This document shows, piece by piece, positions 43,714-45,227 of a stretch of 64,000 bases of DNA; positions within the stretch are counted from its first letter, which is position 1; the number at the start of each line of letters is the position of its first letter. The stretch comes from a virus. The DNA lies in IMG/VR virus record IMGVR_UViG_3300028653_000010; one strand, written 5' to 3'. Under the pieces are notes generated by a model. The model did not search any database, had not been told where the DNA came from, and saw nothing but the letters and a program-made list of their open reading frames with translations. The translations under genes were made by a program, and so were the position numbers.

Positions 43714-43985
43714 GTTTATTCTTAGTTACTGGGCCGAAAGGCCACATTGACTCTCAGGTTCTGGTAGTTGAAGCTTCGACGGTGGATGTGGCCGCTGTTG
43801 GGGTTGGCAATTTTATGGGTTTCCTGGCTGACGGTCAGGTGGTAATTGCGGACTTTGGTGACCCCAATTCCCCTCGTGAGTATCAGTACGTGCGCACGGT
43901 GAATGGTCAGGAGCATCTTGTTCACATGAATGTCCAGCCTACCAAGATCCTTCGCATTACTGGTGACGGGGGAGTACAGAGATGA
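43710..43985 (+). CDS. hypothetical protein (91 aa); paralog of 42712..43059
   Basis: See the paralog. Confidence 0.45.
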   Translation: MSLFLVTGPKGHIDSQVLVVEASTVDVAAVGVGNFMGFLADGQVVIADFGDPNSPREYQYVRTVNGQEHLVHMNVQPTKILRITGDGGVQR

Positions 43986-44734
43986 AAAGCGACACCCTAG
44001 AAGCGAGGATGCGCCGGCTTGAGTACTACCACTCATTGGAGGTTCTCCCCGATACTTACACGATCATCCGCGTTGATGGGCGGAGCTTTACGAAGCTGAC
44101 TCGTGGGATGGATCACCCATTTGACGTGAAGTTTCACGAGTCTATGGTCGAGACAGCGGCGATTCTCTTGGTCGAGCTTGGAGGGTTGTATGCGTTCACG
44201 GAGAGTGACGAGATTTCTGTTCTATTGCCTCGCGATACGGATCTATTTGGCCGCGAGGTGGAGAAGCTGGTGTCGGTCTCTGCAGGGATAGCTTCCTCGA
44301 CCTTCTCGATTCAACTAGGTCAGGCGGCTCACTTCGACAGTCGGTTATGGGTTGGGCCGTTGACATCCAATGTGCTGGACTACTTCCGTTGGAGGCAGCT
44401 GGACGCTTCCCGGTGCTGTATCAACTCCTGGTGCTACTGGACAATGAGGAGATCCGGGCATACCGCCAAGCAGGCGACGGAGGGGCTCGAAGGGGCCACC
44501 TTCTCTACCAAGAACGAAATACTGCACAAGAACGGGATCAACTTCAACAACGTTCCTCTATGGCAGAAGCGTGGGACCGGGCTCTATTGGCATGGTTTCG
44601 AGAAAACTGGATTCAACCCCAAGACCAAGACATCCAGTATTGCTCAAAGACGGAAGATCTACATCGACCGGAATCTACCCTATGGGGACGAATATGTTGA
44701 TCTTGTGACTCAAATACTGCAGAATCTCAAGTAG
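43982..44734 (+). CDS. Thg1-like protein (tRNA-His guanylyltransferase family, 3'-5' nucleotidyltransferase)
   Basis: LPDTYTIIRVDGRSFTKL...HPFDVKFHESMVETA...AFTESDEISVLL...DYFRWRQLDASRCCINS...KNEILHKNGINFNNVPLWQKRGTGLYW carries the hallmark Thg1/TLP motifs. Confidence 0.8.
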   Translation: MKSDTLEARMRRLEYYHSLEVLPDTYTIIRVDGRSFTKLTRGMDHPFDVKFHESMVETAAILLVELGGLYAFTESDEISVLLPRDTDLFGREVEKLVSVSAGIASSTFSIQLGQAAHFDSRLWVGPLTSNVLDYFRWRQLDASRCCINSWCYWTMRRSGHTAKQATEGLEGATFSTKNEILHKNGINFNNVPLWQKRGTGLYWHGFEKTGFNPKTKTSSIAQRRKIYIDRNLPYGDEYVDLVTQILQNLK

Positions 44735-44738
44735 TTCG

Positions 44739-45227
44739 ATGGATCTCATCATTCTTGTTGGCCTGCAGGCATCGGGAAAGAGCACCTTTCAAAAGGTGCT
44801 CTTTCCCGACTATGTCCTTGTGAGCAAGGACTTGATGACTCGTAGTCGCAAGAATCGGACTCCAAAGTCTGTGAGACAGACTCTGCTCATTCGGGAGGCT
44901 CTCGAGGCAGGGAAGTCCCTAGTAGTGGACAACACGAACCCGAGTGTTGAAGAACGGGCTGAGTTGGTAGCTCTGGCGCGTTACTACTCCGCACGGGTCA
45001 TCGTATACCATTTCAGATCCAATGTTCAGCAGTCTATGGAGAGGAATGCTCAACGGACAGGGAAGGCATTCGTCCCGCGCGTGGGCATCCTCATCACGGC
45101 TCAAAGGTTCGTGGACCCAACCCTGGCGGAAGGCTTTGACGAGCTCTACGAGGTGATGTGGGGCCCCCTTCAATACCACCTACTCAGAATCAGATCAACA
45201 CCTGGCCCTTCAAACCCCACCTACTGA
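44739..45227 (+). CDS. P-loop kinase (polynucleotide-kinase-like, AAA_33-type)
   Basis: Walker A ILVGLQASGKST, then LVVDNTN. It lies immediately downstream of Thg1-like. The last ~20 codons of the track ORF are read from the degenerate terminal CRISPR repeats, so the true C-terminus is uncertain. Confidence 0.6.
   Translation: MDLIILVGLQASGKSTFQKVLFPDYVLVSKDLMTRSRKNRTPKSVRQTLLIREALEAGKSLVVDNTNPSVEERAELVALARYYSARVIVYHFRSNVQQSMERNAQRTGKAFVPRVGILITAQRFVDPTLAEGFDELYEVMWGPLQYHLLRIRSTPGPSNPTY

Follow-up and report, generated by a model that had tools for sequence, protein, structure and literature searches.

What two phage genes for RNA 5'-end chemistry do together, and why they should lie directly against a clustered regularly interspaced short palindromic repeats (CRISPR) array, is the question raised by IMGVR_UViG_3300028653_000010, a stretch of 64,000 nucleotides (nt) from a very large phage that is referred to here as the window. 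The first gene, open reading frame (ORF) A, encodes a Thg1-like protein (TLP) and the second, ORF B (44739-45227, plus strand, 162 amino acids, aa), a polynucleotide-kinase-like P-loop protein; together they end a run of small ORFs with overlapping stop and start codons, and the array comes directly after ORF B (Table 1). A first-pass annotation made from the DNA alone had assigned the genes to the Thg1 family and to the Walker-A kinases of the polynucleotide-kinase type, with a gap of 5 nt between them, and had read the pair as a module for RNA 5'-end repair. Both assignments are borne out by the profile and structure comparisons described below, the gap measures 4 nt from the ORF A stop codon, and the repair reading agrees with a gene-neighbourhood prediction published for bacteria (PMC2904730). 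On the basis of family membership, intact catalytic residues, purifying selection and conserved pairing in bacteria, we regard it as moderately probable that the pair is a phage-borne bacterial kinase and Thg1-like module that would repair the 5' ends of tRNAs bearing a 5'-OH, with a historical link to the array.

ORF A scores above the gathering thresholds of both Pfam families concerned, Thg1 (PF04446; 1.4e-27, 96.6 bits with a cut-off of 29.2) and Thg1C (PF14413; 2.6e-15, 57.1 bits with a cut-off of 26.3), and matches PHROG 4717, 'tRNA-His guanylyltransferase' (2.5e-39). Its closest solved relatives are MaTLP (PDB entry 5AXK; 2.8e-28) and BtTLP (4KGK; 2.5e-21), and the eukaryotic Thg1 structures match more weakly (Candida, 6.9e-20; human, 4.4e-17). 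The HINNLYN anticodon-recognition motif is absent, SRCCINSWCYW standing opposite CHINNLYNTTFW of the Candida enzyme, and the alignment extends through the region of the MaTLP beta-hairpin, which binds tRNA independently of the anticodon (PMC4820378). The residues named in the MaTLP structure paper were mapped onto ORF A: R19, D21 and G22 of MaTLP correspond to R30, D32 and G33, S68, D69 and E70 to S75, D76 and E77, and K86, R114 and R136 to K95, R121 and R144. The metal-binding aspartates are kept as D32 and D76 (D21/D69 in MaTLP; D29/D76 in HsThg1), together with the adjacent E77. In MaTLP the triphosphate of the nucleoside triphosphate (NTP) or the RNA 5' end is bound by R19, R83, K86, R114, R136 and N137 (PMC4820378); four of these six positions are conserved in ORF A (R30, K95, R121 and R144) and two differ, the position of R83 being occupied by E92, with R91 one position earlier, and that of N137 by C145. 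All of the mapped residues, including R91 and C145, are invariant across 16 phage and bacterial homologs, and the ratio of nonsynonymous to synonymous substitution rates (dN/dS) relative to L002, the closest related contig, is 0.13. Being closest to the repair-type TLPs, with the catalytic residues retained and no HINNLYN motif, ORF A reads as a TLP of the kind that carries out template-dependent repair, and catalytic activity is predicted for it.

ORF B matches AAA_33 (PF13671; 3.1e-18) and, over their kinase portions only, the NCBIfam models of bacterial Pnkp (TIGR04075; 4.2e-12, 45 bits with a cut-off of 750) and of the eukaryotic polynucleotide kinase (PNK)-3'-phosphatase (TIGR01663; 1.6e-11, 43 bits with a cut-off of 503). 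Its solved relatives by sequence are the kinase domains of mammalian PNKP (1.9e-10) and Clostridium thermocellum Pnkp (4.5e-7). When the AlphaFold2 (AF2) model of ORF B (mean predicted local distance difference test score, pLDDT, of 89.2) was compared with the PDB using Foldseek, ranks 1-17 were taken by these same two enzymes or by fungal stand-alone kinases deposited only as 'Kinase', with query-normalised template-modelling (TM) scores of 0.68-0.75 and E-values of 3e-11 to 1e-8. The protein contains a Walker A motif, G8-LQAS-G13-K14-S15 (pattern GxxxxGK[ST]), an aspartate after strand 2 (D31) that aligns with the catalytic Asp of 'VNRD' in mammalian PNKP, and a lid, R102-N103-x-x-R106 (RxxxR). 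Across 16 homologs R102 is nearly invariant and G13, K14, D31, D64 (in D64-N-T-N) and R106 are fully so; the roles of the kinase residues are established for T4 Pnk, CthPnkp and PNKP. No phosphatase or phosphoesterase domain is present in the 162 aa of ORF B. Because the phosphatase part is missing and the scores lie far below the equivalog cut-offs, ORF B is interpreted, from both sequence and model, as a stand-alone 5'-OH polynucleotide kinase domain and not as a full-length bifunctional Pnkp. The kinase core is under purifying selection, its dN/dS relative to L002 being 0.09; two neighbouring small ORFs gave 0.16 each, and the Thg1 and kinase genes both lie at or below this value.

A conserved kinase-Thg1 operon in bacteria was described by Anantharaman, Iyer and Aravind (2010, Biol Direct 5:43; PMC2904730), who proposed that the kinase makes the 5'-phosphate substrate used by Thg1 in RNA repair. 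The comparison with bacterial operons for which the first-pass annotation had called returned this pairing: among the 80 bacterial kinase loci closest to ORF B, 26 carry Thg1 downstream of the kinase and on its strand, either directly beside it or at most a few hundred nt away. These paired loci span the Cyanobacteria, Ktedonobacteria, Myxococcota, Planctomycetota and Actinomycetota, and both members of each pair are about 50% identical to their window counterparts; no other partner recurs among the 80 loci, the neighbours of which are heterogeneous. The window shows the published neighbourhood, with the two genes adjacent on one strand across the 4-nt gap, in reversed order. The gene pair is already known as a kind, and the window holds a phage-borne copy of the bacterial module. 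In three loci from Thermoanaerobaculia (L073, L093 and L104) a long ORF (634 aa in L073) that resembles, by eye, an ATP-dependent DNA ligase of the LigD type, and not Thg1, lies downstream of the kinase homolog; if this resemblance is true, some members of the kinase family may serve DNA-end repair.

Among phages, Thg1 was found in 159 GenBank records, with about 26-33% identity in the rows listed, whereas the kinase matched only nine. Thg1 occurs sporadically in jumbo phages, and Iyer et al. (2021; PMC7824862) took its role there to be the restoration of 5' nucleotides of tRNAs. The literature was searched for phages that have both a Thg1-like protein and a polynucleotide kinase, and nothing was found; in BSP38, the one record inspected, this kinase is not near Thg1. 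Both genes are carried by a small clade of huge phages to which the window belongs; a 443-kilobase (kb) contig carries a protein identical to the 236-aa neighbour in the window (Table 1), and the viral locus L005 retains the bacterial order, kinase then Thg1.

We infer the substrate, the sequence of events and the advantage for the phage as follows. An RNA, most likely a tRNA, would lose 5' nucleotides and be left with a 5'-OH; metal-independent ribonucleases leave such ends. The kinase would phosphorylate the 5'-OH to a 5'-phosphate, the Thg1-like enzyme would activate this phosphate with ATP or GTP and would then add Watson-Crick-templated nucleotides singly in the 3'-5' direction, with the 3' strand of the acceptor stem as template, and the tRNA pool would stay usable during infection. 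The chemistry of the Thg1-like family is established (PMC4820378), and TLPs repair 5'-truncated tRNAs in vitro (PMC3061083; PMC4820378). The conserved operon argues for a partnership between the two enzymes, and the need for a kinase suggests damage by nucleases that leave a 5'-OH. In the related locus L117, a 95-aa ORF with a GatB/YqeY domain (9549-9836, minus strand; PF02637, 5.6e-17) directly follows Thg1, at the position held by the kinase in the window, and a DDE transposase lies between Thg1 and the kinase. The GatB/YqeY domain is tRNA-associated, and this ORF weakly favours a tRNA substrate.

A more specific role put forward in the first-pass annotation, counter-defence against anticodon nucleases, does not suit the parts list. 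Mending a broken anticodon loop takes an RNA ligase together with a phosphatase or cyclic phosphodiesterase that heals the 3' end. A Thg1-like polymerase is limited to rebuilding the 5' strand of a helix opposite its 3' strand. The Pfam scan of 118 ORFs of the 64-kb window, which is part of a genome of at least 443 kb, revealed no ligase, phosphatase, phosphoesterase, RtcB or CCA-adding enzyme. Repair after anticodon nucleases is unsupported on these two grounds, the lack of a ligase or 3'-end healing enzyme in the window and the inability of 5' fill-in to reseal the loop. A PADLOC search gave no defence-system match for either protein.

The second part of the question concerns the array. Its repeats reach into the kinase gene, as the first-pass annotation had noticed: the reading frame of codons 143-162 of ORF B (LQYHLLRIRSTPGPSNPTY and the stop codon) runs through repeat 1 and a 5-nt remnant spacer into the start of repeat 2. 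The exact 162-aa chimeric protein is called on 13 contigs from several independent samples, which rules out an assembly artefact as the source of the fusion. The window kinase is collinear with its homologs to …YEVMWGP and repeat-encoded thereafter. Its closest homolog, P0001 on the array-free contig L002 (91% identical), keeps the native tail and ends …YEVMWGPERTFIQARVQ; this tail (…WGPERTFIQARVQ) is common to all six phage-clade homologs. L002 is syntenic with positions 38359-55575 of the window at 78-88% nucleotide identity, the homology halting at 45166 and restarting at 49456, and contains Thg1, the kinase with its native tail and a downstream gene of 188 aa; it has neither an array nor any cas gene. 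The comparison with L002 first favoured a simple, recent insertion into the kinase gene by the cassette. This was rejected because L114, L115 and L117 carry the cassette in that position too, beside an unchanged right-hand neighbour but with different left cuts. In the related phages that carry the effector, the cassette is flanked by a homolog of the window gene at 49370-49729 next to the cas genes and by the kinase next to the array. Since the right boundary is fixed and the left truncations are nested (Table 1), the simplest account of the loci is that the cassette has long held one position and that deletions then started in the decayed distal end of the array. In the window, most simply, a leader-distal boundary deletion took away the 188-aa gene together with the final 11 native codons of the kinase and its stop codon, so that 20 repeat codons are now read. 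The two alternatives originally offered, an array decayed into the gene or a lost kinase stop, resolve in this way: the deletion took the stop and 11 codons, and translation now runs into decayed repeats. The 5-nt spacer between repeats 1 and 2 points to the same deletion tendency inside the array. A CCTTCA microhomology at the junction does not reproduce the observed junction exactly and was given no weight.

In L114, a phage contig of 473 kb, a second and independent gene-array fusion is seen at the same locus. From L002, L003 and L004 the cassette was either lost or always absent. The effector of the window is 84% identical to those of L114 and L115, whereas Thg1 is only 70-73% identical, so that exchange of the cassette by recombination between related phages is also possible. 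The fusion is an evolutionary curiosity and not a new mechanism or system. It does mean that array boundaries can erode into neighbouring genes and yield repeat-encoded protein tails, and annotators and CRISPR-finding tools should expect array-eroded genes.

The main rival to 5'-end repair as the role of the pair is that the Thg1-like enzyme mainly maintains tRNA-His identity by placing G-1 opposite C73 of host or phage tRNA-His, with the kinase as a loosely linked accessory, an account that explains lone phage Thg1 genes but not the kinase and that we consider unlikely. The family is named for G-1 addition, and in vitro TLPs from bacteria and archaea are able to place G-1 opposite C73. The majority of phage Thg1 genes stand without the kinase (159 against nine GenBank records, BSP38, and 14 of 17 IMG/VR contigs), and L114 has retained Thg1 despite its truncated kinase. 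The products of RNase P, however, are already 5'-phosphorylated and would make a kinase superfluous, yet the operon recurs at 26 of the 80 bacterial loci and the window kinase is under purifying selection; moreover, ORF A is closest to repair-type TLPs and has no anticodon-recognition motif, and neither tRNA-His nor any other tRNA gene is found in the window or the related loci. According to PMC3061083, G-1 is usually genome-encoded in Bacteria and Archaea. Some of these observations also count against 5'-end repair by the pair. The kinase lies within 8 kb of Thg1 in only three of the 17 IMG/VR contigs with close Thg1 relatives, the two genes are 2-10 ORFs apart in L114, L115 and L117, so that the pair is not obligate, and L114 keeps Thg1 with a truncated kinase. 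The absence of tRNA genes from the window and nine related loci weighs in the same direction, as does the absence from the literature searched of any anti-phage nuclease reported to clip the 5' acceptor strand leaving a 5'-OH; retron Eco2 nicks the 3' strand (PMC12916289). A search of the window against Rfam gave no family.

The clipped tail raises the further possibility that the window kinase is a decaying gene headed for loss, as in L114, and that only Thg1 is functional. The native tail conserved in all six phage-clade homologs has been replaced, and its loss could impair the kinase; L114 demonstrates that the same boundary process can destroy the gene, most viral contigs have no kinase near Thg1, and dN/dS averages over time before the fusion. 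Set against this, the core of 142 codons is complete and free of frameshifts and premature stops, every invariant catalytic residue is kept, the dN/dS of 0.09 indicates constraint, and the identical protein persists on the 13 contigs. The tail past the last core strand ranges from a few to more than 30 residues in bacterial homologs and is variable in sequence, and AF2 sets chimeric residues 146-151 as a strand in the same place, beside the last core strand, with falling and low confidence. Decay therefore appears quite improbable, and the kinase with its chimeric tail probably still works. Least probable of all, and in our judgement very improbable, is that the pair serves the adjacent type V CRISPR system, for instance by phosphorylating and rebuilding the 5' ends of guide or tracr RNA, although this would account for the two loci remaining together in several lineages of huge phages. 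In five of six informative loci (the window, L114, L115, L116 and L117) no more than 10 kb separates Thg1 from the Cas12f-like cassette; four of those five also have the kinase, intact or truncated, within this distance, and the kinase directly abuts the array in the window and L114. All of these loci, however, belong to one syntenic phage clade and share many flanking genes, and descent explains the linkage. The pair occurs without the cassette in L002, L003, L004 and L005, and L118 has the cassette with no pair within 9 kb. In L114 the kinase is cut at codon 68, yet the effector gene is full-length and 15 repeats are conserved. The pair lies on the strand opposite to the cassette, converging on the array, and only Thg1 recurs beside the bacterial kinases, where no scan aimed at CRISPR arrays was made. 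The adjacency recorded in the first-pass annotation thus stands, with no functional meaning that could be demonstrated: the link reflects gene order shared by descent together with the boundary deletion, and is historical.

The array and its cassette (Table 1) have features of their own. On the plus strand the repeats have the consensus CCTTCAAACCCCACCTACTCATAATCGGATCAACAC. Repeat 1 (45167-45201) has one indel and further mismatches and repeat 2 (45207-45242) five mismatches; from left to right the decay runs from the indel through 5, 6, 3, 2 and 4 mismatches to mostly perfect copies, the rightmost eight being perfect. Two spacers are abnormally short, 45202-45206 (5 nt, between repeats 1 and 2) and 46039-46056 (18 nt), the others measuring 35-38 nt, which suggests internal deletions. 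The repeat folds weakly and only in the minus-strand orientation. As the cas genes lie on the minus strand and read toward the array, transcription of the array is most likely on the minus strand, with the old, decayed end facing ORF B. Arrays in the relatives have from seven to more than 47 repeats, with a conserved repeat 3' end, GAGT(A/T)(C/G)GTGGG..TTGAAGG. The repeat sequence is absent from IMG/VR, two of the newest spacers have no exact match there, and no spacer matched the masked window or the related loci then compared.

The effector candidate matches NCBIfam guided_TnpB (3.7e-7), Cas12f1 in the PDB (9i8y; 4.9e-6) and Cas12u1/Cas12f in PADLOC (about 1e-4), and its family has only ten clusters in 5.8 billion proteins. 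The 236-aa protein beside it has only four, is without a match in Pfam, PHROG or PADLOC, and adjoins the effector in L114-L118 as a partner of 220-236 aa; contigs carrying the effector or the partner reach 473 kb. No cas1 or cas2 was seen near the effector cassette. Rfam gave no match for 46461-46685. A promoter-like site lies at 49379-49350 (minus strand); the number of such sites, as of all promoters and terminators in a scan of the window, is not above chance. This rare compact type V cassette is probably more interesting than the gene pair.

Table 1. Features of the gene pair and the adjoining CRISPR cassette, with the left flank of the cassette in the window and three related loci; positions are those of the window except for L114.
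Feature	Position	Strand	Remarks
ORF A, Thg1-like protein (TLP-type 3'-5' RNA polymerase)	43982..44734	+	250 aa; Pfam, PDB, residue mapping
ORF B, native part, polynucleotide-kinase-like P-loop kinase	44739..45164	+	Codons 1-142; AAA_33, Pnkp/PNKP, AF2/Foldseek
ORF B, chimeric tail	45165..45227	+	20 codons and stop; repeat 1, 5-nt remnant spacer, start of repeat 2
CRISPR array	45167..46460	-	19 repeats of 36 nt, 18 spacers; left end degenerate (leader-distal), right end perfect
Leader or possible tracrRNA region	46461..46685	-	Inferred from position only
236-aa protein of unknown family	46686..47396	-	Always adjoins the effector
Compact TnpB/Cas12f-like type V effector candidate	47405..49264	-	619 aa from GTG; 608 aa elsewhere
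Cassette upstream region, right end of the segment absent from L002	49265..49455	-	L002 homology resumes at 49456
Left flank, L117			Kinase intact, 268 nt from the last of seven repeats
Left flank, L115			Kinase intact; 77 aa left of the homolog of the 188-aa gene, with a long degenerate array tail about 35 nt away
Left flank, window			188-aa gene gone; kinase without its last 11 codons
Left flank, L114	11652-11888 (L114)	-	Kinase cut after …VIVDNTNPSL (codon 68), fused in frame to the terminal repeat (…PSNPTYSFIL and stop)

Nearly all of the approximately 120 ORFs in the window are without relatives in family libraries. Families could be assigned to, among others, an R2K ATP-grasp protein (2.5e-37), a DDE transposase, GIY-YIG and HNH homing endonucleases, a pilin-like N_methyl protein, an HU-like protein and a sigma-factor-like protein. 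The family library scans of the 64-kb window recognised no structural phage gene. In the operon upstream of Thg1, the plus-strand ORFs 42712-43059 (115 aa) and 43710-43985 (91 aa) appear by eye to be paralogs; both are without a known family and have in common the motifs …VTGP…, …DFxxxxSxREYxY… and …GDG….

For bacteria, repair by the kinase and the Thg1-like protein has been a prediction since 2010, and this phage clade offers a compact pair with which to test it. That the pair is under purifying selection within the clade suggests that some hosts damage tRNA 5' ends in a manner that leaves a 5'-OH, and we know of no defence system that does so.

Of the closest known systems, the bacterial kinase-Thg1 operon contains the same two families, adjacent on one strand, with the same predicted logic. 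It differs in order, being kinase then Thg1 at the 26 bacterial loci and Thg1 then kinase in the window and L002-L004, and the window pair is further set apart by its location on a huge phage, the lack of a Macro-domain or RNA ligase partner and the chimeric C-terminus of the kinase. The Thg1 genes of cultured large phages (Bacillus Herelleviridae, Caulobacter, Lak and jumbo phages) are likewise phage-encoded, but their products are only about 26-33% identical to the window protein. With MaTLP and BtTLP, ORF A has in common the two-metal carboxylates, the beta-hairpin region and, for MaTLP, four of the six residues that bind the triphosphate or the RNA 5' end, and like them it lacks the eukaryotic anticodon motif; it departs from MaTLP where E92, next to R91, replaces R83 and Cys145 replaces N137. 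T4 Pnkp with Rnl1 and the bacterial Pnkp-Hen1 system resemble the window pair in using a 5'-OH polynucleotide kinase domain of the same fold for RNA healing. Those systems add a 3'-end phosphatase and a ligase, whereas the window has only the kinase domain of 162 aa, and in the pair, as proposed here, sealing would be replaced by templated refilling.

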